A stretch of DNA of 62,862 nucleotides, counting the filler, from Klebsormidium nitens (taxonomy: Eukaryota > Plantae > Klebsormidiophyceae): NCBI GenBank assembly GCA_000708835.1. It is 7 parts of 7 records of this genome, joined end to end, with 100 filler letters (N's around TTAATTAATTAA, not from the genome) between each part and the next. Parts side by side here need not be neighbours in the genome. Positions count along the whole stretch, not along the records: positions 52,634 to 60,206 come from DF237022.1; 6 more parts are not named here. One strand, given 5' to 3'. Below, in pieces: positions 46,566-62,862 of this stretch (position 1 is its first letter; every line of letters begins with the position of its first letter). The position numbers and the translations under genes were made by a program. The notes under the pieces are model-generated. The model saw nothing but the letters and a program-made list of their open reading frames with translations. It did not search any database and had not been told where the DNA came from.

Positions 46566-49500
46566 CTAAAAGGTATAAGCGGACCTGACGGGGTTCTCCA
46601 CACCCGCATCTCTAAGGATTCCCTCGTCCTCACTCCTATCTAACGCTGCCCTAGTAAAGAGGAAAGGCTGGCCAGCAATCTTTTGGAAGCGTCCCACGAG
46701 CACACCCACTAACGACTCACCCTCATAAACTGCTTCCCACAGCACATTGCAATACTGTGCCGATAGGCTCGTTAATGACACCACGATGGACTGAACAAAG
46801 ATCTGCTCGTCGATGTAGATTCTCGTTGCCCTTGAACTTCCCACGACATACAACCCGGTCTGGAACACCACTTGAGGGAGAGCCTCGAGCAGCATCTCAA
46901 CGGACACCCGAGCGTCGTGATACCGCTCAAAGCTGACAACTTCCTCCCCCCAAGCGAGGTGAAACCCAAACTTTCCCACGACAGCAAGCACGTCCTGGAC
47001 AAGCACGCCTACTACGCCGAAGGGCAGTAGCACAAGGGCAAGAAGCCAACGGTGCGGGGCCCTCGCATTCCTAGCCGGGTGACTATCTGGAGAAAACTCC
47101 GAGGGCGGAGGCCAGAGCCATATGAAGCGCATTCCGCTCCATCTAAGCGCCGGACGCGTTATGGAAGTCCAAGTCAAGGTGACTGCATATGCCCCAACGA
47201 TGAAGGGCGCGCATATGGACGCCAAAACCACCCACATCGGCCACGCCCCCACCACCTCTTTCAAAACGAAGAGGTCCGTGACTAGATCGACGACAGGCAG
47301 TACGCCCAATGCCGCTCCCCAAACGTAGAGTCCGGCATATTTCCAGCTGCAATTCGGAATGACAACATTTACAGGACGTTTCGCTGACAGCAATGAGGTT
47401 CGTTCTAAAAAGGTCAAGGTCGGGCAGTCCTTTAGTAAGCAGCCACTACACGCCTCAGTCAGCAGCAGGTGTTCCCTAAAGGTCAACAGCAAGCTTCCGT
47501 TCGAGGACTTGCCAGACCAAGCCAGTAGTGGGTAGTCTTAGTGACGTCTCCAGATGGATTGCACAGTACCCGGGACCTTACGAACGCAAAGTCCTACTGC
47601 CCCGTCCTTTAAGGGATTGCAAGCGCCAAGGCATCTACTACGGTAGTGAAAGACCCAGATCAAGGGACCGACTCTGGCAAGCTGATGCTCTGAAAAGCCG
47701 CTTTGCTTTCACCCTTCACCCAGCTTGCAGTGTCTAATCCAGACCTACGAGGACTAGATAGGACACATTTTGGAAGGCCTCCGAACAATCTTGCGACTTC
47801 AGCCAGTGTCCACCAAACGCGGCTGATGCTTTGAGCATCCTATGGTTGAACAAGCCAGGGTGTGCGAATGCCGGCCTCCCTGCAAGCTGCTGCTTAAGCT
47901 GACAGACCCTCAGCTGAAACGCTGGGCCGTTTTGGAGGCCATACCCAACACAAAACGCGCTCTCACCAGTCTCGACTCGTCGACAGGCCTGTGAATTGAG
48001 ACAGGCACCCGCGAGAAGGTGGGGTGAGCTGGCTGATTGAGATGGAGTTAGGTGCCAAGCGCGTGAACATTTTGGTTGAGGATCTAGCTGAAGTGCCTGG
48101 GTAGCTCGTATCTCACTCGTATATCACTGACCTGGCACGCGTCCGTCGGGTTACGTAAGCGTCATCAGTATAAAGTGGAAGCACATTCAACCTACCTGCG
48201 AGAGTCTTGCTCCTCTTGAAGATCGCCGTTTGGCCGCTTCTGACGCCGCCATCGTGCCACCAAAATAATGGCGCGCGTCGCCAGCAGCAAACCGACTGCA
48301 AACGACCCGAAGACGATTGCAGCGACCCTCTTGGCTTCGGGGTTACCGCACAGGTTGCCCGCCTGAACCCGCGTGAAACCCACCCCGGTATACGCTCTCC
48401 CGTCCGGGCCCAGATCGATGTAGTCCACGAAGTTGGGATCCGTCAAATCATAGGTCCCCTTGTTGTTCTTCAGAGCGTTTGTGAAACGCTGATTGTCATC
48501 ATAAACGGGTTCGGGAAGGTCCCCGTCCAAGAATACGGAGATCTTGTGCAGGCAGATATGACGCCTTGTGCTACGCAATAACCTGGCCCCCGTGCCCCGC
48601 AAGCTCACAACGCAGCCCGTGTTGCACGCATCCCAGAAACGGATGCGCTTGAGACGCGGGTTTGGGTCCGTCAGATTGACAATCTTGCAGGAGCTAGGCA
48701 ACGAAGAAAGATCCAAAGCCTCCGTGGTTTGATCGCCTAAGCCCAGCTGGAGGAGGTAGATATTGGTCTGCTTTGCAGAACGGGGCGGCTGGCAGGGAAG
48801 TCCCAGCGACCTGAGCTGCTGAAAGCGAGACAGGTTGACCCTTTCGCACGATGTCATGGTAGAGGACAAGTCGAGGTCTAGGAGGCCAGTCAGACTGCCG
48901 AGCTCGGAAGGAATGGGACCAGAAAGGTCGTTGCCGTTAAGGGTAAGGGTTTCGAGGCTCGTAAGTTGGCCGAGTTCGTGGGGAATACTGCCTGAGAAGC
49001 TGTTGTTGTCAAGGTACAGGTCTTTTAACTTAGCAAGGTTGCCTAGCTGGGAAGGAATGTTGCCGGATAGATTGTTAAAGGACAGCCAGAGGACGGTGAG
49101 GTTTCCCATTTGGCTAAATTCAGGGGGCAGGGTGAAGAAAAACTTGTTGTCGTGGAGCCAAAAGTCGGTGAGGCTAACAAGCTGGCCGAGCTTGGCCGGG
49201 AGGACGTCTGAAAGACCGTTGGTGGAGATATCGAAGGTTTGGAGGCTTGTAAGTTGGCCAAGCTCGGGGGGAATGGCACCCGTAAGGTTATTGTTGTAGA
49301 GGTAGAGGTGGCGGAGACTCGACATATTGCCGAGCTCAGAAGGGATTGTGCCAGAAAGACTATTGTTCTTGAGGACAAGGTAATCAAGGTTTGCGAGGTT
49401 GCCAAGCTCGGGGGGAATCAGGCCGTGAAAGTTGTTGTCTTGGAGATAAAGGTATCTGAGTCTGGACAATTTCCCCAGCGGAGCAGGAGTTGCACCGGAG

Positions 49501-50012
49501 AGGTGGTTGTTGTACAGGTAGAGGTGTTCAAGGCCTGTGAGCTGGCCAAGCTCGGGAGGCATGACACCCCAAAGACGATTATTGTCAAGGGAGAGTCTAT
49601 TCAGCTGGGCAAGCTGGCCAAGCTTAGGAGGGATGGGGCTGGAGAGACCGTTGTAAGAGAGGTCCAGGTTTTCTAGGCTCTCGAGTTGGCCAAGCTCGAT
49701 TGGGATGGCTCCAGAGAGGCTATTGTTGTGAAGGTCGAGGACTTTGAGATTGACAAGCTGGCCAAGCAGGGGAGGGATCGAGCCGGTCAAGTGGTTGTTG
49801 GAAAGATCGAGGGCAGTGAGGTTTGTTAAGAGCCCTAATTCAGAAGGAATGGGCCCGGTAAACCCCATACCACTTAGACCGATGGTGGAACGCTCTGAAA
49901 GGCCTCCTCCCACCAGCATGCTGATCTCATCGATGGTCACACACCGCACTATACACATCCATACCCACCCGGAGACGAGGAAAAGAAGAAACTCCTTGCC
50001 GGTAAAGGCCAT
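46566..50012 (-). CDS. LRR receptor-like protein fused to an XK-related-like multi-pass membrane domain
   Basis: Exon 50012-48196 encodes a signal-like N-terminus (MAFTGKEFLLFLVSGWVWMCIV), ~14 plant-type 24-aa extracellular LRRs (LxxLxxLxLxxNxLsGxIPxELGx) and a TM helix. A phase-2 GT-AG intron 48195-47347 joins it in frame (DSR-S-WKYAG) to exon 47346-46566, which contains VDLVTDLFVL, EMLLEALPQVVFQTGLY and SIVVSLTSL. Confidence 0.75.
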
Positions 50013-51686
50013 GTTGAGCCGCACGCCTGCAGACAAACACATGAAAGTGTCAATGACCACCATCCATGCTTAAACGGTGGCTAGCAAGACAATCAAAGAA
50101 TAATTTGTAATGCAATTATCATCACATCCAGGTTTTCAAAACAGCTCAGTCCCGACTAGCTACAAGTCCCTCCAAGCGAGGGCTCCGCATGATACGGGCA
50201 ACTATCAAACTCAATGAGCTTAGATTCCAAAGTCAAATTTTGATAGGAAAATGCTTTTGGCCAAGAGAAGCAGGAGTCGGACCAATCAAACAGAGGGTGA
50301 GACATACAGGAGTCCTCAAGAAGAGCTAGCATGACGCCAACCACCAATGGTATGCCCGCATGTGAAATGCGCATAGAGCTGACATGTGCCTGTCCTGCCA
50401 CTTGCAAGTGATCTTTTTGTAATAGATCACTGAAGAGTGCTAGTAATATTAATCATTGTGAAATTCTGCCAAAGGCCCGAAGAAGGTATGACCCCAGGAC
50501 AGAAACAGTGGAACGGGGGGGTCGGAAAGAGTATCAGCTAGACAGCTGAAGCAAGCTGTGCAATTTCCCCCCGATGTCGCTGCATGACAGGTCTTAGTTG
50601 GACTCTTAGGAAGTGGGCTTCCAAGAGGGTTCCCCCTAAAAGAGGGGACCAAGCGGGCAACTTCTGCATGTTCAAACCAGCTGGACTTTCTGGTCGCCGG
50701 CCATATCCTTCCCCAGTCTTGGCACCAATGCAGAGCGCAACATTGCAGGCCAGCTCCATCCAAGGTCAGAACAGCATATTCCAGCACGTTAAGAACAAGC
50801 GTAAGCCCTTTCAAGAGTCACCAACGCGCCGGCCTCTGCCCCCCTATTCCGACTTGACGGTGTTCGGCAAGCAGGTCCTGAATCTAGCAGGGCCTAAGTG
50901 GTCCAGAGGCTTGGGGTGCACGCCCCATGAACGGTCTCAAATGCGAGGGGCTACCAGGCGATAATTTACAGCGGTCCGTATAATAAGAATTCCAAGCTTC
51001 CAAGTCCTCGCTTTAGAGAGTCAGCTCAGGCTACTACCTAAAGTACAGGACCACAAGCTTCAACACATTGCAAGCTGCAAGTTGCTGCAGGCCGTCGGAA
51101 AGGCCGCCTTGTTCTCAAGGCCTCTTGTCATCTCGTCCTCATGCACCACCCTGTGAAAGAATCAGGATTCAGCAGTGAGCACTGTGTGGCAGCTGTTCTT
51201 TGGTCAGCTAGCTGTTCAAGTTGGGTTTCAATTTCTGCCTGGCCGGGAGACTTTTGGCAGGTTGACCACCAATTTAATACGGTACTTTTGACGTCATGCC
51301 GTAAAACTAGGCTCTAGGTAGTAGGCACTCCCTTTTACAAGTTTTAGCAGTGATCGAGTCTGTTTGAGTCTGTGCTGCCATTTGATACCGGAAGTTTGGC
51401 CGGGCTGTTTGCGCAAACAACTTCCTCGTCAGGCCGCCGGCGCCTGCTCCGGGAGTCCAGTCCCGGCGGGCCCACGTGCTTAACGCCTAGTCTAGTCTAG
51501 GTAGGTAGTACCGTAGTAGGCCCTGCAGTAGCCCCTGGCCCCTGGCCCCTGGGCCTGGGCCTCAGGCTGGCGGCGCCTGGCCCCAGGTCTGCACAGTGCA
51601 CACTGCAATCGTGCCTACTACCGTACCGTACCTCGAAGTCCGGAAGTTCCCAGTACCGAGGATGAATATCGACATCTTGTTCCGCA

Positions 51687-52320
51687 CAGGGGTTCTAGCA
51701 GGATTTTGCCCGGAGGTGCTGTGGCGCCCCTGGGCTTCGCCCCGGGGCGCGGACCAGCCTCCCTGGGGCGCCCAAGCCCCGGCGCCAGCGCCCGGTGCAA
51801 TGGGTATTCCGTCGAAAGCTGTGTTTAACCGAGCCGAATTCGTGCATACCGGTCCTGGGCTTTTGTCTACGGTACAAGCAGTCGGCAGTGGGCACAAAGT
51901 CAAATAAATACGTGCCCCCCTATCCAAAGCAAGTATCGTACCTACTACCGGAACAATTGCTCTTATTGAAGCAATGTTTTGCAGACGAATGGTTAAAGTA
52001 TGAGACTCGGCTACCTGTATGTGTAGAGGGCTCGACTTGGAATCCGTCGCGTTTTCAGTCAATTGTGAGTGCTTATCCCCAAATCGTGGAACTATAAGGG
52101 CTTCTTTAAGTCCTGATTATATCTGCAGGCAATGCTCTGATAATCTGTACTTTAAGAGATCATTTCAGAGTTCCCGGTTGAGGCGGCCTGGATCTAACTT
52201 TCCAAAAGTAGGCGGGACCTGCGGCCCAGGGCGCTCTGGCGCCCCGGGCTTCCGCCCGGGGGCGCCAGTATTTGCCCCGGGGCGCTCTGCGCCCCGTTTG
52301 GCGCCCCGCCAGAACCCCTG
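51687..52320. mobile_element. 634-bp non-autonomous hAT-type MITE
   Basis: Terminal inverted repeats CAGGGGTTCT(A/G)GC(A/G)GG at 51687 and, reverse-complemented, ending at 52320. Flanking 8-mers are GTTCCGCA (51679-51686) and CTTCCGCA (52321-52328), a 7/8 match. GC-rich GGCGCCCC/GCCCGGGG subterminal motifs occur in both arms. Confidence 0.8.
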
Positions 52321-52633
52321 CTTCCGCAGATTCATCAGCAGCTGCCAATTGTCATGCTCGTAGCCTTCAAGTTGTAGCATGCCCATTGCGCCGGTGCGGG
52401 CCCCGGGGCCCGGCGTGAATAACCGGTAGCACGCCAAAGTACCTGGCACTTGGTGCAATGATGGCGCTGAAGGGCCGCGGCAGCGCGGCCGCGGGCCCCC
52501 CGGGCCCCGTGTGCGACGTAACGGTTTTTTTTTNNNNNNNNNNNNNNNNNNNNNNNNNNNNNNNNNNNNNNNNNNNNTTAATTAATTAANNNNNNNNNNN
52601 NNNNNNNNNNNNNNNNNNNNNNNNNNNNNNNNN

Positions 52634-52928
52634 GGTGGCATGGCTGCTGACGTCATCAAGGGGGCCGCTCTCAAAAGGTACGTGAAAACCTCGGACACTC
52701 GGACACCTTGGTTCCGTCAATTACAGTAGATTATTGGTGGCAAGGTTGCTGTCATTAGAGAGACCGTCTGTCAATTGAAGGTGCTCCCAGAACTCGGACA
52801 CTAGGACACCTTCGAGCCGTTGGTTACAATAGATTATTGGTGGCATGGTTGCTGACGTCATCACGGGAACCGCTCTTAAAAGGTTCGTGAGAAACTCAAA
52901 CACTCGGACACCTTCGTGCCATCTGTTC
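52634..52928. repeat. Three degenerate ~102-bp tandem repeats
   Basis: Units start at 52634, 52736 and 52839. Each begins GGTGGCA(T/A)GG(C/T)TGCTG and contains ACACT(C/A)GGACACCTT; the first two end TAGATTATT. The array may extend into the gap. Confidence 0.85.
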
Positions 52929-52997
52929 AAGTGTGTCCGTTGTTTATGTACTTAGGGCTAGTGCTTGGACCAAACAAGATCATATTCCGACCTTGCA

Positions 52998-53750
52998 ATG
53001 GAGCAACTCTCTGATGGTCATACGCTATGCCGAGCCGTTGGGGTGACCTTCAAGAATAGACAAGCTGCGGTTCGCAACCTGAGGATCGGCCAAGAGCTTG
53101 TGCTTCTTAAGCACTTGGGGAACGGCTTCGACTCATATGCAATTGATATCTTCCAGTTGGCAGATTGCAGCATGCCACTCGGCTTTATTGGACGCGATGA
53201 TAAGCACCACAAGGTTTTTGAGCATGTTTGTGCGGGTTCGGGGTTGCCAGCAAGAGTCGATCGTATCAACCGAGGTAGGGGCGGTCGCGGGCCATGGGGT
53301 TTCACAATAGCGATCGCAGACTCTGCAGACTGCAGCAAGATGGCTCCTCCTCTAAATCTTACAAACGTTTGCCAAATTGTGATTAAGAGACCAGAAGAAG
53401 TACGGGGCTTGAAAGAAAAATGAGCAAGCGTGTGACACCTCTTTTGCCGAACGTATTGTAGCCACACGATGGACGCAATCTTGGGCTATCGTCCTCCAAC
53501 CATGTTTGCAGTCGAGCAGATGGATCGAGCCGTTCTTGAGAGTGCCAAGACCGCAATAGTGAGATCGTACAGAGAGTTTGGGATGCTTGAAACGATTTTT
53601 GATCCAGCAGCCCTAGCGGGAATTCGCGCCCTGGCAAAACCGTTCAATCTGCGTCACATCACTAGAGCGCTTGTGCGATCCCCAATGCTGAAGGCTTCCA
53701 CTCTTACTGGGATTGAAGCGGCATGCATGGACCATTTGCTGTCAAAGTGA
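52998..53750 (+). pseudogene. HIRAN-domain protein interrupted by two in-frame TGA codons
   Basis: AVGVTFKNRQAAVRNLRIGQELVLLKHLGNGFDSYAIDIF...LGFIGR matches the HIRAN pattern (VG.F..RQ...G..L.L..E..N.YD..AI...LG(F/Y)). ORF 53469-53750 is in the same frame after GAA AAA TGA GCA AGC GTG TGA. Confidence 0.65.
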
Positions 53751-54287
53751 GCTGGCGGGTTGCCCTTAAAAACGCGTCTCGGGCTCAACGTCAACCAAAG
53801 AAGCTGCGGTTGAAAGAACTACGGCTCACGGCTCCCTCTCACAAAGGAGAGTCGATTTCTCCCATCGGTCATACAAGTATCAAAGCCCGTTCTCCATCGA
53901 GTCCCGGATATGCCCCTAGTATGGTGTGGAGTGATGCGCCAATCTTGGATTTAGAGGCGCTTGCAAATTCCAACAAGGTTCGCCATGCTACCGAATCTTT
54001 GCGGGAATCCTCTCCCAGATAATTGAACCTCTGAAAAGGCACCGTTCTAGAAATTATGTACACTCATATTCAGGTATCTGGCAATACTCTGTTATCGGCC
54101 GATAAAAGAGGGGCGTTAAGGCCCCCAAGCCGGATTGTAGAAGCTTTCGCGCGTGAGATAACCATGAAAAGCTCCTAGGCGCACCAAAACTGTGAAAGGA
54201 AAGATAAACACGAAGATTCGGTATCTGAGCACTCCGCGGCTAGATGCCGTTCATCTTTTTTTTCTCAGTATCTAGATACCCCAGGGC

Positions 54288-55340
54288 ATGGCAGCTTCGG
54301 ATGCAACCACAAAGGTTATAAGAACCTCGACGTCAGCCGAACGACTGCTTCACAATATCTTTGATGACTCGACACGAAAGCCGTACACGGTCGAGCAATA
54401 TTGTGCACGGGTGATGCGCCTCTTCAAGAGCATGCATGCTCCAAAGGAGGATTTCGAGAATCTCGATTGGGTCAGATCTACGAATGAGATCATTGCGTTT
54501 CTTGGCAATGCTTATGGCAACAAACTACCAACTCAAGCAACGAGCATAAGCCCTCTCCTCGTCATAGCTCGGAAACTATGGCCCAGTGATCAACGGACCT
54601 ACGAGGCACTTTTAAAGAGATACACTGCCGTTAGAAAGGCCATGGAAGATGCTCGGCCCGCCCAACATATGTCAGAGCGAGAGGCAAAGAACTGGAAGTC
54701 GTTGGACGATATCAATCAACGCCGCGTCGAACTTCAACGGAAGATCAATCGATCCATCGCGCCCAAAAAGCCGGAAGAGGTCACGGTTGCGGATAAAGTA
54801 ACGCTTTGTCGCTACCTCGTGCTATGTTTATACACCCAGATGCCTGCGATCCGTAACGACTGGAGCAATCTTCCCATTGTGCGCTTTGAAGAGATTGGGA
54901 GCACCGCCGCACGTGAGCTGATGTCCGGATCCCGCAACTACCTTCTGGAATATGCAAAAGGAAGCTATAGGCTCCATCTCAAGTCGTACAAAACCGACAA
55001 GACACACGGACCACATGTTCTTGACATACCGGTCCGGCTTGGCAACGTGATTGCGGAGAGTCTCGCTATCTTCCCGCGAAAGTACCTGCTCAGCCGAATG
55101 AGGACACCAGATGCTCCGATGGGATCAGGATACTTGACGAAGTTCTTGGCTGCCATTTATCCAGATTCGAATTTGGGTTCGTGCCTTTTAAGAAAAATCA
55201 CAGTCAGCAATGCTATGAAAGATGCCCCTAGCCTCTATGAAAGGGACCAGCTGGCAAAGTCAATGTTGCATACGGCACCAATAGCGATGCGCCACTATGA
55301 GCTGAAGTACAGACCGGACGGGTCTCGGATTCAATTTTGA
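54288..55340 (+). CDS. Tyrosine recombinase/integrase (350 aa)
   Basis: Catalytic residues appear in order: R (MPAIRND), K (SYKTDKTHG), R of a variant HxxR (GSCLLRK), H (AKSMLHT) and Y (AMRHYE). Intronless. Confidence 0.75.
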   Translation: MAASDATTKVIRTSTSAERLLHNIFDDSTRKPYTVEQYCARVMRLFKSMHAPKEDFENLDWVRSTNEIIAFLGNAYGNKLPTQATSISPLLVIARKLWPSDQRTYEALLKRYTAVRKAMEDARPAQHMSEREAKNWKSLDDINQRRVELQRKINRSIAPKKPEEVTVADKVTLCRYLVLCLYTQMPAIRNDWSNLPIVRFEEIGSTAARELMSGSRNYLLEYAKGSYRLHLKSYKTDKTHGPHVLDIPVRLGNVIAESLAIFPRKYLLSRMRTPDAPMGSGYLTKFLAAIYPDSNLGSCLLRKITVSNAMKDAPSLYERDQLAKSMLHTAPIAMRHYELKYRPDGSRIQF

Positions 55341-55429
55341 GCGGTTTCACTCCGTCCACTTGCCACTTGAAAGCTCGTTTAGGACACTTCGATACCTGCT
55401 GTGAACAAACTCATTGGAACGGTTGGTTT

Positions 55430-55735
55430 TCAGGAATCATCCAGCATGTTCAAAGAGGCCGTTTGAGGCATGTCAAAGCCAGCATCGATCAGTCGTTGAG
55501 TTGTAGTCTTATGAAGCTTCTTTGTTCGACCACTCACGTACCTCTGATACGCCTTGCGTATCAAAATTGCTTCGTGATGTCGATAATAATATGCCCTCAT
55601 GTTAGCATTGTGCTGCTCCGAATGAGTTTTTGCGTATTCCCTGTGCTTTTGGCAAGCTTGACACGGGCATGGAGCATGCATATCAGAGGTCCTGTCAGAG
55701 GCATTTGAAAATCTCTCGTGCATTTGATGGACCAT
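55430..55735 (-). CDS. Small basic hypothetical protein, divergent from the primase
   Basis: ATG at 55735 (alternative 55681) gives CPCQAC...NMRAYYYRHHEAILIRKAYQRYVSGRTKKLH. It fits between the YR and primase genes without overlap. Confidence 0.5.
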   Translation of the reverse strand: MVHQMHERFSNASDRTSDMHAPCPCQACQKHREYAKTHSEQHNANMRAYYYRHHEAILIRKAYQRYVSGRTKKLHKTTTQRLIDAGFDMPQTASLNMLDDS

Positions 55736-55844
55736 CTCGAAGTCCTGCTGATATGTGAGATTATTTTTTGCTGTGCCTTGACCGCGGTCCGGATTTGAAG
55801 TGCGTTTGATTGACGCACTTTTTCTTCTTGCGTTACACAAGAAC

Positions 55845-58607
55845 ATGTCTGCACCAGACATGGAACAAAACAGCGCCCCAGAACCTCGGGCCACAAGAGA
55901 CTCCAGAGCCCTAGGGCCGAAAGCCATCAGAGATGAGATCCAACGACTGTGTGAGGTCGGCTTATTTGCTATACCGATACGCATGTACTGGGATTCTGGC
56001 AAGGACAAAAAAGATGCCGAGGGGAAGATAGTCAAACCCGCAAAAGCCAAAAAAGCTGCTCAATTTCCAACCTGGGCGCATATCACGACGCGGGAGTCGT
56101 GGGAGACGGCCATCAATGAAATAATGCAAGATTTTCGAGGTGCGAATGGAATTGCGATATTGACAGAGGCTAGCGGCATCATGGGAATTGACATTGATGT
56201 CACCGGCGATAACACAAAGAATCCGGGAACCGAACTTTGGAATCGAGTTGTTGCCATCCATGGAGAACCAGTTACACTGAAAGCAAAGAGTGGATCAGAT
56301 GGACTCCATTACTATTTCAAGGCAAATTCGCCGGGCCTTAAACGCACACGTAACTTTTCTACTATGAAGGTTGATGGAAGGGTTTTTGGGGTGGATGGTC
56401 GTGGCGTAGGAGGGGTGATGTTCGCGCAACCATCAAGCTACGTTAATGGCCAAGGTGAGCTCAAGACGTACCAGTGGCTTAACGGCCCGCCAAGCTACGA
56501 CGCATGCCAAGATATGCCTCAATGGCTCGCCGAATTGGTAAACAACAACGCCGGCGAGTGCGCTGTTGCGAGTGGCAAAGGAGAAGAACATGCACTTCAC
56601 GAATCTTTGGTGGAGCGCAATAGCACTGGCACCAACTCTCTACCGGCAACTTCGGTAGTTGGCGAGTCCCATGAAAGATCAACAGCTGTCAAAGAGGTAC
56701 AAATCCTGCTTCAAACAAAAACAAGGGAAGATGGCAGCGCGCGCTTTGGAGGCTTGACAATGCTTCCAGAGGGCAATCGTTGCTTCCAATTTCGTGTGAA
56801 CGGCCCGAGGACTTGCTATCTTGGAAAAGAGCACAATGGATCAAACAACTTCACGGTGATTCAAGGATGTGCAGGAGACCTACGGAATGTATACTACCAC
56901 TGTTTTGGCACGGCTTGTCAAGATGACAACACGAGACTCCTTGGAGAATTGAGCATCTCGGCTGCTCTTGAGCAGGCATCCGTGGACGAGTTTGGGATTC
57001 AAGATCACATGATTACTTGCGAGCGCAATCTCGAAGCACGATTGTCGACGGCGTTCATGAAGAGCATGGTGTGCCGAAGTGACTATGGTGCCGCCTCAAT
57101 CTTTGTCAGGTTGTTCCAGCACGACAGACGAATCGTGTATGACGCGGGAAGCTTCTGGATTTGGGATGGAAGAACGTGGATTGCGTGCGATTCGGAAGCG
57201 ACTCTGATAAAGAGCGCATTCATGTGCCACATGGGGAAAGTGAAAGCCTTTTGGATGAAGCGCATTGCAAATGAAGGTCGTGAGAAGATTCTTGAGGCAG
57301 AACGCACACGAGACGCCAGCTTGGCACAGCTCCTCGGTGCGAAGATGGACAGCCGATCGAAAAGGACCGCCGAGACGGCCATCATGAGAACTTTCAAAGC
57401 TTCAGAGAAGGACGCCGATCAATGCGCAAGATGGCCGGGACCTGACGTTGAATCGGTGCCAATTGCGACCCGATGCTTGACTCCTTTTAAATCTATGTTG
57501 AAGCTTGATGGCTTTGCCAAAGAGCTCAATGCGAGTCGCGACTATCTAAATACCACCTCTGGCGCAATCCATTTACCAACAGGCAAGCTCATACCACATC
57601 ATCCAAGCAACATGCTCTCGAGAGAGACCGACACAGAGTATGTCGGACCCAACTATCCGTCACCGTTAATCGATGAATACATGTTGCAGATTCAAACTCC
57701 GGAAATCATTGAGGTCCTACAAATGACGCTTGGCTACGGCATCACCGGACATTCAAGAGAGAAGCAGTTTGTCATCTGCTATGGGCCTTCGAATTCTAGC
57801 AAGACAAAACTTCTTGCTCTTACAAAGGCAGCAATTCAATCGTATTTCTGCACAATGGATCGCGACTGCGTGATTGGGGTTGGTGTGAGGTCAGAAGGGG
57901 CCGCCACACCACATCTCTTGAAGCTTGAGGGTGCGCACATTGCCGTTTTAGAAGAGACAAAGCTAGAAGATGTCTACAACGGTTCCAACGTCAAGTCCAT
58001 TGCGTCCGGTGAAGGAGGTATGAGCGTACGAGGGCTGCACAAGCAACCCGTAGAGATCACGTGCCGTTGTTTGCCAATCATTTGCACAAATTCGCTTCCG
58101 AGATTTGACGTCAAGGATAGCGGCACACTGAAGAAGCTTCGCGTGTTTCCTTTCAAGCGAGAGTTTGTCGAGCGGCCGAAGCCCAATACAAACGAGCGAT
58201 TGATTGACTATCAGCTTTCTGAGAAGATTGAAAGTCCGGAATGGAGGAAGCAAATGCTTGCGTGGCTTGTGCGAGGGAGCATGGCGTGGTACAAGAAGGG
58301 GAGTTTGCCGCTGGTTGAAGAGCTACCTCAGGACATGCAAGATGCTCTCAAGGGCTACGTGGAAGCCAATGATCATCTCAACAACTTCATTGCCGATCAT
58401 TGTATTAAAGGTGAATATAAGGTGGCCCATGTGGATGTTCTCAAGCAAGCGTTTGAGAATTACATCGGAAGACGAGATCGTCCTATGATGGTAACCGAGT
58501 TCAAAGTGCTAATGGATGGCGTCAAAGACACCACATTTGTAAAACAAATCAAGATTCGCGGGCGTAACACGACCGGATATCGAGGAATTAGTTTGAGGCG
58601 ATGCTAA
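55845..58607 (+). CDS. Bifunctional primase-polymerase (Prim-Pol) fused to D5/P4-family SF3 helicase
   Basis: 920-aa intronless ORF. Prim-Pol motifs are GIAILT...GIDIDV, SGSDGLHYYFK and DGRGVGG..FAQPS. A Cys/His zinc-binding segment (C..HNGSNN..YYHCF..C) follows, then D5_N (FWIWDGRTW, LNTTSGAIHLPTG). SF3 motifs are Walker A YGPSNSSKT, Walker B IAVLEE and motif C IICTN. Confidence 0.9.
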   Translation: MSAPDMEQNSAPEPRATRDSRALGPKAIRDEIQRLCEVGLFAIPIRMYWDSGKDKKDAEGKIVKPAKAKKAAQFPTWAHITTRESWETAINEIMQDFRGANGIAILTEASGIMGIDIDVTGDNTKNPGTELWNRVVAIHGEPVTLKAKSGSDGLHYYFKANSPGLKRTRNFSTMKVDGRVFGVDGRGVGGVMFAQPSSYVNGQGELKTYQWLNGPPSYDACQDMPQWLAELVNNNAGECAVASGKGEEHALHESLVERNSTGTNSLPATSVVGESHERSTAVKEVQILLQTKTREDGSARFGGLTMLPEGNRCFQFRVNGPRTCYLGKEHNGSNNFTVIQGCAGDLRNVYYHCFGTACQDDNTRLLGELSISAALEQASVDEFGIQDHMITCERNLEARLSTAFMKSMVCRSDYGAASIFVRLFQHDRRIVYDAGSFWIWDGRTWIACDSEATLIKSAFMCHMGKVKAFWMKRIANEGREKILEAERTRDASLAQLLGAKMDSRSKRTAETAIMRTFKASEKDADQCARWPGPDVESVPIATRCLTPFKSMLKLDGFAKELNASRDYLNTTSGAIHLPTGKLIPHHPSNMLSRETDTEYVGPNYPSPLIDEYMLQIQTPEIIEVLQMTLGYGITGHSREKQFVICYGPSNSSKTKLLALTKAAIQSYFCTMDRDCVIGVGVRSEGAATPHLLKLEGAHIAVLEETKLEDVYNGSNVKSIASGEGGMSVRGLHKQPVEITCRCLPIICTNSLPRFDVKDSGTLKKLRVFPFKREFVERPKPNTNERLIDYQLSEKIESPEWRKQMLAWLVRGSMAWYKKGSLPLVEELPQDMQDALKGYVEANDHLNNFIADHCIKGEYKVAHVDVLKQAFENYIGRRDRPMMVTEFKVLMDGVKDTTFVKQIKIRGRNTTGYRGISLRRC

Positions 58608-58681
58608 TCTAGTGGTTCGTTCAAGTTAGCAAAGGCCGCAGAGAAGTCCAAACGTAGCTCCGACGTATTTGAGCAAGTGGT

Positions 58682-58921
58682 GGGGGGGGAGGTAGGTGAG
58701 GTAGGTGGAGGTAGGTGCTTAAAAATTGTTCGTTTTAGGTTTACTTTATGCTTATAATATAATAAAGGTAGGTAGGTATGTATTATAATATACACTATAG
58801 CAAATGTTATTTTTGTGCCATTGAAAGCACAAAAAGTTTGTCTTTGGCCAACAAAAAAGCCGTCTACCACCTACCTACCTACCTCAAAAGCGTTTCTACC
58901 GATCACCTAGCCCCCCCCCCC
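58682..58921. promoter_or_regulatory. Putative replication origin: inverted AGGT/ACCT iteron arms around an AT-rich core
   Basis: G8 followed by AGGTAGGT x3 (58690, 58699, 58709) and AGGTAGGTAGGTA (58766). AT-rich core ~58720-58860. Inverted arm CTACCACCTACCTACCTACCT (58864-58884) then C11 (58911-58921). Starts 75 bp after the helicase stop. Confidence 0.5.
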
Positions 58922-59033
58922 AAATTGCTGATCGTCTACCAGACTTTTCCACGCCATCTACCAGTACGTTGCTTTTCAAAGTAAGGATCAAAAACGCGCC
59001 GCCATCCTGTTGGCTCTTTGCAAGACACCTACC

Positions 59034-60206
59034 CTATCCTTGCAATAATACGGCGCGCATTTCAATTGTCCACAAGGCCGCCGCAACCGCGATGCTAAGC
59101 TTCGCGTCGTCGACTCGTCTCAAAGAGCTATTGTAGCCGCCGAGCAGCAGAGGCAAGATCACCATGAAGCTCTCAAGCCCTGAATACCACCCCAAACTCC
59201 TAAACCCCTTTAGGAAGCTGTTGACTGACTCCACGGCCGACGTATTGACCCAGTGAAGGGCTGCGTAACTCTCCGGGCAATTCGAGGGGCCGCACTTGTG
59301 CACTTCGGATCCAGCCTTCGCGTAGTGGAACCTGTGCATGGAAAGGTGTACATCAGTCTTTATTCGTAGAATAAGAGTTCATGTACACGTTTCGATCCAA
59401 GGATCACAACTCTCAGATCCGGCGCAACTGCAAATGAGTTTCAGTGTACACGCAACATTTAGATCGATGACTAAAGGCTCCACACAACAAAGACTGCAAA
59501 TACGTCCCAATGTACACGAATAGTTCAAGCCCCATTCCAGCATTTGATCGGGCAACTTCTTACCTGTCGACAATAAATCTAACGTTGGCAAAGTGGGCCG
59601 GTGCTCGTCGCAGGCAGTAGTTGCGCAGCGCACATGCGTTGTTGTACACGAGGTACTGGGGCAAATCCTCGCGTTTCATCCGCGTGTAGAGCACGACGAA
59701 CGCGTCCCTGGGGCTCTCCCCGCGCAGCATCGTGTGGAACCCGTATATCACTCTGTGGGGGCAACAAAACACAAAGACCCCCCGACTCCTATTCGGCCGC
59801 TTGCTCGCGTTTCCCTTCTTCCGTGAGAGCTTTCCGGCGCCCTTGATCAGCCCAAGTACGTTATCGGCGTCCCACTCCGTCATTGACTTTCCGGTGGCGC
59901 ATTTGAACTCTTCCGAGCTTCTGCTCCGGCCGTCCAGGTGCTCGAAGCTGCTATAGTGCGGCAAGCCCCGCTTCTGCTCCCAACCAGGAAGGCTGTAGCA
60001 CGCCAGGGCGTCCTGCTCGGCCCGGAAGCGATGCCCTGACGGAAGCGGATGCAGCTCGCCCCCCTCCTCGTCTTGCCCAAGCCTCTCTCTCAGAAGCGAG
60101 CGCTCGTGATCGCTCATGGCCTCCCATTGCTCCGCGCTCGGCTCTAACCTCTCGACCCCTGGGAGCAGCTCGTTCGCCAACCCTCGAGCCTCGTCTAGCC
60201 CTCGGC
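59034..60206 (-). mobile_element. KDZ (Kyakuja-Dileera-Zisupton)-type transposase, 3' part
   Basis: Exons >60206-59564 and 59331-59034 are joined by a phase-2 GT-AG intron. They read GVFVFCCPHRVIYGFHTMLRGESPRDAF...YNNAC...FIVDR|FHY...HKC...VNTSAVESVNSFL, the motif order of KDZ-type transposases. The 5' end is lost in a gap. Confidence 0.7.
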
Positions 60207-60306
60207 NNNNNNNNNNNNNNNNNNNNNNNNNNNNNNNNNNNNNNNNNNNNTTAATTAATTAANNNNNNNNNNNNNNNNNNNNNNNNNNNNNNNNNNNNNN
60301 NNNNNN

Positions 60307-60927
60307 CCATCGTGACGCGATTGTCATTCGCACCTGCACTGGAGCTCTGACTGAGAAACTCGACCAGACCAAAGAGCCAGTCAACTTCGTGCTAAACCCA
60401 GGGACCGCCGATGAACTTACCGTCAGAGCGCACGTGGTGATTGTCAACCAAAACGTGCCTGACACTTTGATTGGCATGAGTGTCATGGGACCAGCTGAGC
60501 TCACGCCTGACATGCGCAAGAAACGCGTCAAATACTACGTCGAGGATGACCAGATTACGCGCAAGTCCTTCTTGCCGTGCAAGTTTCCCATCGACTACGC
60601 CAGGTCGCCACTGCAGGCGTACCAGGCGCTTAACGCTTACACGGGATTCATCGTTCCCGTTGTAAAGAGCCCGCGCAATGCGGAGGATGTCGCAGTGACG
60701 CGCGCGCGCCTTGCTGACCATCAGACGAAGCTGCTCCCTGAGATGACTGAAATCTTCGATCGCAGCATTCGGGCCCTGGCTACACCAGAACGAAAGCCGC
60801 CTGTGATTAGCGACCCAGCTTACCGGCACTTGAAGCCGTTAAACACGTCGTTCGTCGACAAGAAAGACGTGCTGGCCACACCTGGCCCAGGCATGGTGGT
60901 CAGCCAAGAGGTTGCCCACTTCGTGCA
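60307..60927 (+). mobile_element. Retroelement polyprotein fragment (aspartic-protease-like region), DNMT-less copy
   Basis: Open frame containing VIVNQNVPDTLIG, which resembles the C-terminal DxLIG part of retropepsins. It is paralogous to 61250-61683 with mostly synonymous differences, then jumps to VSQEVAHFV, matching 62724 onward. Confidence 0.6.
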
Positions 60928-61249
60928 NNNNNNNNNNNNNNNNNNNNNNNNNNNNNNNNNNNNNNNNNNNNNNNNNNNNNNNNNNNNNNNNNNNNNNNNN
61001 NNNNNNNNNNNNNNNNNNNNNNNNNNNNNNNNNNNNNNNNNNNNNNNNNNNNNNNNNNNNNNNNNNNNNNNNNNNNNNNNNNNNNNNNNNNNNNNNNNNN
61101 NNNNNNNNNNNNNNNNNNNNNNNNNNNNNNNNNNNNNNNNNNNNNNNNNNNNNNNNNNNNNNNNNNNNNNNNNNNNNNNNNNNNNNNNNNNNNNNNNNNN
61201 NNNNNNNNNNNNNNNNNNNNNNNNNNNNNNNNNNNNNNNNNNNNNNNNN

Positions 61250-62675
61250 CACTCTGATCGGTATGAGTGTCATAGGACCGGCCGAGCTCACTCCCGATAT
61301 GCGCAAGAAACGCGTCAAATACTACATCGAGGAGGACCAGACGGTGCGCAAGTGCTTCTTGCCGTGCCAGTTTCCCATCGACTATGCCAGGTCGCCGCTG
61401 CAGGCATACCAGGCACTTAACGCTTACACGGGATTCATCGTACCCGTTGTAAAGAGCCCGCGCAATGCGGAGGACGTCGCAGTGGCGCTTGCGCGCCTTG
61501 CTGACCATCAGACAAAGCTGCTAACTGAGATTACTGAGATCTTTGACCGCAGCATTCGGGCACTGGCTATTCCAGAACGAAAGCCGCCCGTGATCAGCAA
61601 CCCAGCTTACCGGCACTTGAAGCCGTTGAACACGTCATTCGTTGACAAGAAGGACGTGCTGGCCACACCTGGCCCAGGCATCGTAGTCGTTGAGTTGTTT
61701 TCTGGCCTCATGGCCACTACCGAGGCGTTGCTTCGGCAGGGAGTTACCGTCAGAAAGGTGTATGCCTGCGAGATTGACGCCAAGACCCGCAAAATCGCTG
61801 CTAAGCGTCTGGCCGTCTTGCACACCTTATTCCCACAGCTCCTGAGCGCAGACGCTATTAGAGACTGTCATGACCACTTGGGAGACGACGTCAGCAAAAT
61901 CAACAGAGGCCACATGGCCCAGCTGGAACGTCCTGACCTTGTGGTGGCCGGATTCCCGTGTCAGGGATTCTCACGAGCCGCAGAGTACGCCCTAGGCTTG
62001 CGCGATTCGCGAACCAGGCTCTTCGACGATGCCATCCGAATCGTGCACCTCATCAACAACATTTGGGGCGGCTCTGTGGGCTACCTGTTTGAAAACGTTG
62101 ACGCCAGCGATCACCCGCAGGCAGACGTACGGGCAGAGTTTAACACCGTGGTGAAGGGAGTGCTCGGACACGGCTTCGCATTTGATGCCGTGGCCGTTGG
62201 CTCTTACGCGCATCGCCAGCGCCATTGGTGGACCAACCTGGCCCCAAGCGCCCTCATGTGCGAAATGGTTGAGAAGAAGTTCAAGCACCGCAAGCCGGAT
62301 CAGATTGTCCAGAACATTCTGCAACACGGCCACCGGGCTCAGAACGCTCAGCACGCCCGCGCACCTGGAAAGGTCTCGGTCAACGTGCGCGGCCAGCCGC
62401 TTCGCGCTCTGTCCACGTTTGTCACGGTGCGCGGCTCTCACGCCTATCACCCTGGACAGCAGAGCATGATCCAGCAAGCCAACGGATTCTGGGATGAGCC
62501 TACGGCTCTGGAGCGCGAGCGCGCTCTGGGATTCATGGACGATACCACAAAGGTTTGCCCCTCTATTTCAGAGGCTGACCGCAGAAGAATCCTGGGAAGC
62601 ACCATGGACATGCACGCCCTGCAGTTCATCATTGGCAGCATCCAGTGCTTCCAGTTCGCCTTTTTCACCGATTGA
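61250..62675 (+). CDS. Retrotransposon-encoded DNMT3-like C5 cytosine methyltransferase fused behind a protease-like region
   Basis: Motif I VELFSG, II ACEID, IV VAGFPCQ, VI LFENV, VIII RQRHWWTN and C-terminal ERERALGF...LG.TM. Intronless, with the 5' end in a gap. The frame stays open after the single TGA to the window end. Confidence 0.88.
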
Positions 62676-62681
62676 CAATTA
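62673..62681 (+). promoter_or_regulatory. Stop-codon readthrough signal TGA-CAA-TTA
   Basis: The stop is followed exactly by CAR-YYA (CAA TTA), and the same frame continues for ~62 codons (QLARRNAP...PGMVTSQEVAQFVQ...) to the window end. Confidence 0.7.
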
Positions 62682-62862
62682 GCCCGGCGCAACGCTCCAG
62701 TCCAGGAGAGTTGTGACCGGATACCTGGCATGGTGACCAGCCAAGAGGTTGCCCAGTTCGTGCAGAGCGGACTTCTGCGCTGCCGCACCCTTCGCTCCCA
62801 GCCACAGGACCCCAGCACCGTGTTGGGACAGCCACCTGAGCTGGGGGGGGGGGGAAGTCAGG

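Follow-up and report, generated by a model that had tools for sequence, protein, structure and literature searches.

An apparently undescribed multi-copy composite element of Klebsormidium nitens that carries a viral-type recombinase and a primase-helicase beside a KDZ transposase gene

Genes and origin-like site of the cassette

A stretch of 62,862 nucleotides (hereafter the window) from Klebsormidium nitens (assembly GCA_000708835.1), a charophyte alga of the sister lineage of land plants, was analysed around a gene cassette that encodes a HIRAN-domain protein, a tyrosine recombinase (YR), a small divergent open reading frame (ORF) and a primase-helicase, and that is followed by an origin-like site and a KDZ DNA transposase gene. 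The window consists of eukaryotic scaffold DNA that contains spliced host genes and is interrupted by eight N gaps. The cassette contig spans 52634-60206 (7,573 bp) and is bounded on either side by a 100-base placeholder gap of indeterminate true size. A first-pass annotation had described 52634..58921 as an intronless four-ORF cassette flanked by a repeat array of ~102 bp and an ori-like structure, with no capsid or packaging ATPase in view. All four ORFs (52998-53423, 54288-55340, 55430-55984 on the minus strand and 55845-58607) are open and intronless, and the results below are in line with its gene and repeat assignments. Its borders have to be redrawn: the left one merely marks where an N gap ends, and the unit runs past 58921 into the transposase gene. 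The nearest named protein relatives of the cassette are K. nitens gene models, which form a multi-copy Klebsormidium family. No CpG depletion of the element was found (observed/expected ~1.0).

The YR (350 aa, 54288..55340, plus strand) is of the type found in Polinton-like viruses (PLVs) and giant viruses, and profile, structure model and alignment indicate an intact R-K-R-H-Y catalytic set. Residues R189, K235, R302, H328 and Y337 are conserved in an alignment of 115 sequences. Because 14/19 relatives that span all five sites keep R-K-R-H-Y and the listed variants all fall at third codon positions (7/7), the YR is, on sequence grounds, under purifying selection. The single 350-aa sequence had no significant Pfam match. 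A profile search returned 2,408 relatives at E values up to 0.001, the Phage_integrase family of Pfam was matched by 15/115 aligned members, and the profile matched the PDB integrase 3NKH (E 5e-6). The model built from the 115-sequence alignment reached a pLDDT of 95, with Cre as the best match among solved structures, and supersedes a poor earlier fold from 19 sequences (pLDDT 54). When compared with viral models, it matched proteins of algal and amoebal giant viruses and of a virophage. The YR is OLV11-type, as in PLVs.

No match to the YR was found among 50,697 phage records, and scans of metagenome contigs with the YR and KDZ alignments gave no match either. Viral-contig scans recovered no close relative of the YR or the primase, only YRs at 22-32% and primases at 21-23% identity, and a prokaryote-genome scan returned one relative, without its locus. 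A quick-version tree was built from 45 YRs, of which 34 came from the 115-sequence alignment and 11 from viral loci. In it, the 14 family members formed one clade, nested in a group of 14 unassigned proteins and separate from the 11 viral-contig YRs. A sister YR group (P0038, P0039, P0041-P0043, P0046, P0047, P0051 and P0054), several members of which are on contigs of 38-260 kb, was placed beside the Klebsormidium family and likewise apart from the viral-contig YRs; these are possibly further capsid-less elements in other eukaryotes. The same two enzymes were also seen in a viral setting: virus contig L001 has capsid-like ORFs and an A32 ATPase, and immediately after its primase-helicase come a small ORF and a YR with 25% identity to the family.

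The primase-helicase (920 aa, 55845..58607, plus strand) combines Prim-Pol (Pfam, 1e-11), D5_N (2e-12) and a superfamily 3 (SF3)-type helicase, and Pfam and alignment place DxD at 116/118, His155, and a Walker A variant, GPSNSSKT, at 647. The variant is without the usual Gly before Lys; it is not clear damage, because several relatives have Ala at that position. The protein resembles viral and phage primase-helicases only distantly, phage and plasmid primases being 20-26% identical to it, and no C-terminal origin-binding domain was found by Pfam. Two relatives, P0028 and P0031, are 82-91% identical to it in the Prim-Pol part and 27-31% in the helicase part (82% and 27% in P0028), a mosaic structure pointing to domain swapping between subfamilies.

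An origin-like site (58680..58921) lies directly after the primase stop and consists of convergent AGGTAGGT repeats round an AT-rich core, with a G-run and a C-run at the edges. By motif count, 8 of the 11 AGGTAGGT sites of the whole window are at 58690-58884, five forward and three reverse, where they surround the most AT-rich 100 bp of the window. The motif GGTAGG occurs nine times in the 426-bp intergenic stretch and at most twice in 1132 other intervals of equal size. This origin-like clustering is far beyond chance. Origins of Staphylococcus aureus pathogenicity islands (SaPIs) comprise 6-12 short iterons directly downstream of the rep gene, in opposite directions and with an AT-rich centre (PMC9371898; here and below, statements on the literature refer to the accessible part of each source). 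By this analogy, 58680..58921 is likely a replication origin.

A spliced CxC4-KDZ DNA transposase gene begins 113 bp beyond 58921 and extends on the minus strand up to the right-hand gap. Its last exon (59034..59331) and a GT-AG intron of 232 bp (59332..59563; joint 59336>59562) were placed by the gene model, and its second-last exon (59564..60206), supported by Pfam and alignment, is open up to the gap. The window thus holds the final ~310 residues, and the 5' 800-1000 codons lie outside it. The window exon matches the Pfam family KDZ at E 1e-3. Among its relatives, some of which are labelled SWIM-type by UniRef, are full-length proteins (1100-1330 aa) that match CxC4 and KDZ weakly; KDZ was matched in 14/19 relatives and CxC4 in 14/19. 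When tested against Plavaka, the transposase matched KDZ and CxC4, not Plavaka. The family is dispersed and multi-copy: the 54 matches include 26 annotated K. nitens genes, which lie on different scaffolds. The window copy has Asn at a column that is Asp in 44/45 relatives and that we take to be a catalytic acidic residue. The transposase of this copy is incomplete and mutated, and the copy is probably unable to transpose alone.

Linkage to the transposase gene and copy number

The junction of primase and KDZ gene recurs at other loci. Contigs were taken from public sequencing runs of one sample (X1, X2 and X3); run X8 was excluded, as C>T and G>A made up most of its differences, the pattern of a bisulfite library. 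A paralogous locus that is 78-84% identical to the window (X3 record 17, with the same locus in X1 and X2) carries the 3' part of the primase and then both KDZ exons. Order, orientation and spacing are as in the window (879 vs 839 nt), and the intron has diverged, the 232 bp being replaced by a shorter unrelated stretch. In X1 record 5, a primase is joined to KDZ in the other orientation. By locus tag, two of the six annotated K. nitens primases stand beside a KDZ gene (KFL_010800030 with KFL_010800040, and KFL_003750020 with KFL_003750030), for which P is about 2e-4 to 8e-4 by chance; the members of one such pair are only 46% and 51% identical to the window.

Linkage was also evaluated in metagenomes of the Joint Genome Institute (JGI), where contigs of equal size were taken as the same contig, a proxy used without inspection of the contig sequence. 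Against 57 KDZ contigs, equal-size pairs were obtained for 4/17 YR contigs and 1/12 primase contigs, with 0.01-0.02 chance matches expected. Among YR contigs shorter than 25 kb, 3/7 were paired with KDZ (P at most 2e-3, also when 300 KDZ copies per genome are assumed). These counts are lower bounds, as the searches were size-limited and 6/15 multi-member KDZ clusters and four primase clusters were expanded. All five contig pairs involve KDZs with at least 60% identity to the closest full-length relative (5/17 vs 0/40, P 0.0015). Because all five thus belong to the KDZ subfamily nearest the window, simple clustering of repeats is argued against, though the argument hinges on the identity cut chosen.

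Summed contig depth in X1 was compared with a value of ~15 for unique DNA, a measure that, as the tool warns, is no copy number. It amounted to 200-620 for the YR, 60-215 for the primase, 135-305 for KDZ, ~615 for the array and ~75 for the HIRAN gene. The array is therefore at about 40 times and KDZ at 9-20 times the single-copy level, and the YR sequence is several-fold more abundant than the primase. The low summed depth of the primase and HIRAN gene relative to the YR, KDZ and array suggests that these two are optional modules. At 58927 and 58971, a short way 3' of the KDZ stop, depth drops to the single-copy level, and at the origin (58827) it increases once more, which makes a shared KDZ terminus beside the stop unlikely. 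It is mainly because this single-copy depth shows no conserved KDZ terminus that the cassette is placed inside the KDZ element.

Nature of the element and comparison with known systems

The locus represents a real, multi-copy composite element in which KDZ is linked to the primase and, by contig-size match, to the YR; it is apparently undescribed and appears closest to giant cargo-carrying KDZ transposons. Cassette and KDZ gene are probably one co-inherited unit. We see an even chance that this unit is a large KDZ transposon of Klebsormidium with a module for replication and recombination that was derived from viruses and that likely serves to amplify the element. In such a transposon, an intact KDZ transposase from another copy would cut the element out and insert it with a target duplication of 7-8 bp, as in Kyakuja, Dileera and Zisupton. 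The primase-helicase would bind the AGGTAGGT repeats, melt the AT-rich core and prime synthesis, host polymerases would extend the product, and the excised or in-place copy would be amplified outside normal S-phase licensing. The YR would be a resolvase acting on dimers or cointegrates, or would close circles, and would not be the main integrase; Tn3-family and plasmid systems offer the analogy. HIRAN and the primase-origin block would be optional modules, probably taken from PLVs or giant viruses also inhabiting the alga. KDZ is proposed as the mobiliser because such transposases persist only by moving surrounding DNA and carry accessory genes in elements of up to 31.7 kb, and the primase-helicase with its origin is proposed as the replicon because of the analogy with SaPIs.

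A further-reaching claim is that of a new class of capsid-less self-replicating eukaryotic DNA transposon, part of a wider cellular YR clade, in which KDZ integrates, the primase-helicase and iteron origin amplify and the YR resolves; we treat it as tentative, with the balance somewhat against it. The first-pass annotation had likewise considered a new integrative self-replicating class. A multi-copy mobile element with a PLV-type YR, a primase-helicase, a SaPI-like origin and no visible capsid is supported, but not a self-contained 6.3-kb YR module, as the KDZ DDE transposase is included. The recent activity that the annotation suggested from the intact YR and primase ORFs is weakened by the incomplete, mutated KDZ transposase of the window copy.

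Several results weigh against a KDZ transposon carrying this module. Terminal inverted repeats, target duplication, att site and circle junction were not found, both ends lying in N gaps and being unassembled, and no KDZ or CxC4 score in Pfam reaches the curated cut-off. The enrichment of the KDZ subfamily is weaker at other identity cuts (P 0.03-0.13), 60% being one of three cuts tried. No KDZ appeared among the incomplete lists for 11/12 primase contigs, 13/17 YR contigs and 4/6 K. nitens primase scaffolds. The first-pass annotation had expected the YR and primase to co-occur, which is partly contradicted: besides their several-fold difference in summed depth, the 17 YR and 12 primase metagenomic contigs have no contig in common (0 matches), and no single contig bridging the two at another locus was present among the matches listed. 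Divergence of cargo and KDZ was correlated, not significantly (Mantel 14/120 and 6/24 permutations). At 80% identity, the YR sequence is also commoner than KDZ, an observation equally compatible with a YR-driven element.

Such a YR-driven element would be capsid-less and plasmid- or satellite-like: the YR would integrate and excise a circle, the origin would replicate it, and KDZ would be a passenger or an old nested insertion inherited along. It would account for the order integrase, small ORF, primase-helicase and iteron origin, which matches SaPI satellites, for an intact YR next to a mutated and incomplete KDZ in the window, for the highest summed depth among the genes being that of the YR, and for family YRs that form one clade apart from the 11 sampled viral-contig YRs. 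We nevertheless judge it unlikely. The KDZ exons are kept in the paralogue while the intron has diverged, and full-length KDZs persist, which suggests that KDZ is still selected for transposition; moreover, the YR and primase are not together at a second locus. Nor was an att site found: 52650-59020 holds no att-like inverted repeat (arms of at least 11, spacer 4-10), the left and right regions have no 12-mer in common, and the window has no tRNA gene. Passive cargo or a repeat island, in which KDZ transposons captured viral DNA fragments or repeats pile up and the primase, origin and YR have no part in the spread, seems quite improbable to us. By depth, a minority of copies carry the primase and HIRAN gene, the primases are mosaic, as in P0028, and other elements lie on both sides in the window, all as expected of passive cargo; yet the ORFs are long and intact with catalytic residues kept and a third-position bias, the origin-like site is kept beside the primase, and no such linkage was seen in more distant KDZ subfamilies.

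We give a slim chance to an endogenous PLV or giant-virus fragment with its capsid and ATPase genes in assembly gaps and a KDZ transposon inserted beside it. A YR with a primase-helicase is a known end module of PLVs (PMC11296320), and YR relatives are encoded on virus contigs, for example on L001, which has an A32 ATPase. K. nitens has seven PLV capsid loci of the PgVV cluster (PMC10120064, Tables S4 and S5) and giant-virus inserts (PMC5294986), and because of the seven loci, resident PLVs are possible donors or helpers. The true size of the 100-N gaps is indeterminate, and several kb of KDZ must be concealed in, or have been replaced at, the right-hand gap. However, no capsid or packaging ATPase is encoded in the sequenced part of 50063-62862. 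When all ORFs of at least 100 aa from 23 viral loci were compared with the window, only YRs and primases matched; capsid labels in these loci were assigned by size, context and mutual similarity, the only Pfam confirmation being that of the A32 ATPase of L001. The viral contigs yielded no KDZ relative. At 950 bp to the left of the gap, single-copy host DNA is reached again, contigs of 11.5 and 12.5 kb appear to hold the YR together with KDZ, the seven reported capsid loci are fewer than the YR depth implies, and the reported capsid contigs measure 12.9-60.6 kb as against 7.6 kb for the cassette contig.

Among known systems, KDZ transposons (Kyakuja, Dileera and Zisupton) have the same intron-containing CxC/KDZ transposase, are multi-copy and can carry accessory genes, such as TET/JBP in fungi; one KDZ element, Zisupton-3_cRei of Chlamydomonas, is a giant of 31.7 kb (PMC12730594; PMC9977147). 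The viral-type YR, primase-helicase, HIRAN gene and origin-like site seen here are not mentioned for KDZ elements in the accessible text of these two papers. Giant Plavaka repeats of Amoebidium (PMC11244446) and Bostrychia (bioRxiv 10.1101/2025.02.11.637652) are likewise large DDE-transposase-flanked repeats with intron-poor accessory genes; those of Amoebidium include tyrosine recombinases and those of Bostrychia have tandem repeat arrays, both as here. Their transposase, in contrast, is EnSpm-related and not KDZ (PMC12730594), and a primase-helicase or origin is not mentioned in the accessible text. PLVs have the same OLV11-type YR and D5-type primase-helicase as an accessory, not defining, module (PMC4642659; PMC11296320). 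They are defined by a major capsid protein, a minor capsid protein and a packaging ATPase (PMC4642659), none of which is visible here, and bear terminal inverted repeats, of which none of this kind was found in the window, where the ends of the element are unassembled. SaPIs and other phage-inducible chromosomal islands (PICIs) have the same integrase, fused primase-SF3 helicase and iteron origin directly downstream (PMC9371898). Polintons/Mavericks and Teratorn also join a DDE transposase or integrase to viral replication genes (PMC6431247), but they rely on a protein-primed PolB or an entire set of herpesvirus genes and encode capsids, as against only Prim-Pol/helicase, YR and origin here. 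The satellites differ from the present element, which has a eukaryotic host with spliced genes, a link to a spliced DDE transposase and no att-like repeat that could be found. PICI, SaPI and P4 satellites live in prokaryotic hosts, have att sites and are packaged by helper phages. Cryptons have a YR as their sole enzyme and no replication genes, whereas a primase-helicase and a DDE transposase are linked to the YR here. A description of a KDZ element with a primase-helicase or YR, or of the Klebsormidium family, was not found in the full-text literature; Repbase and most subscription papers were outside this search.

Eukaryotic cut-and-paste transposons rely on host replication for their copies, and the exceptions with replication genes of their own (Polintons, Teratorn) proved to be capsid viruses. 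If true, a capsid-less DDE transposon equipped with an origin, a primase-helicase and a resolvase would occupy the gap that separates transposons, plasmids and viruses, and this hybrid would be a eukaryotic counterpart of replicative transposon-plasmid hybrids. A review foresaw that primase-based replication together with an integrase could yield new large elements (PMC6431247). A compact origin and its cognate helicase could also yield a small replicon for algae or plants.

Further features of the contig and its flanks

The contig begins at the N gap with a tandem array (52634..52932, plus strand; tandem joints 52923>52640), of which repeat analysis shows about 2.9 units of 102-103 bp. The array is longer in other copies, as seen in contigs of the public sequencing runs, and is likely a subterminal repeat of the element. 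It is followed by the stand-alone HIRAN gene (141 aa, 52998..53423, plus strand), probably a HIRAN domain as judged from ESM Atlas (0.93; 25/30 matches HIRAN). Its recognition score of 2268 is slightly below the 2300 mark of the tool, and the ORF has no Pfam match. The protein is a predicted binder of 3' DNA ends or forks, encoded by a low-copy accessory gene. Two short overlapping ORFs of 93 aa and 99 aa (53469..54022, plus strand), possibly coding, were identified by ORF scan and contig depth in a high-copy stretch with single-base indels between copies. A sequence scan revealed a perfect 14-bp palindrome upstream of the YR (54092..54105), the 12-bp core of which recurs in the loose ends of diverged copies (loose ends before 54113); it is a possible protein-binding site. 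The small ORF between the YR and the primase (184 aa from the first ATG, 55430..55984, minus strand; ORF scan) has a Cys-Pro-Cys-x-x-Cys motif and overlaps the primase start by 140 bp, and its true start is probably later than the first ATG. It has no identifiable family, in Pfam or otherwise (a score of 0.82 being a lead only).

Left of the gap, unique host DNA extends up to 51686, 950 bp from the gap. It is followed by a multi-copy, non-coding element of 634 bp (51687-52320) with inverted termini starting CAGGGGTTCT and an 8-bp flanking duplication (7/8 match), presumably a hAT-type miniature inverted-repeat element by its looks; Zisupton and Dileera also make 8-bp duplications. This element was considered as the left end of the composite element and rejected, as it has its own inverted termini and 8-bp duplication. 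Contig cover is little or absent at 52329-52533 (last bin 0). Beyond the right-hand gap, 60307-62862 holds a fragment of a retroelement that encodes a C5 cytosine methyltransferase (ORF 61263-62675) and has a partial duplicate, 89% identical, across a gap. It fits KnitGypsy-Dnmt3 of PMC5890265, matched by description and not by sequence; an assignment to DIRS was dropped, as the element is Gypsy according to that source. Further to the left, a long ORF on the minus strand (48192-50063) encodes a leucine-rich-repeat protein that has hydrophobic segments at the N- and C-terminus; the ORF includes no kinase and has paralogues elsewhere in the genome.

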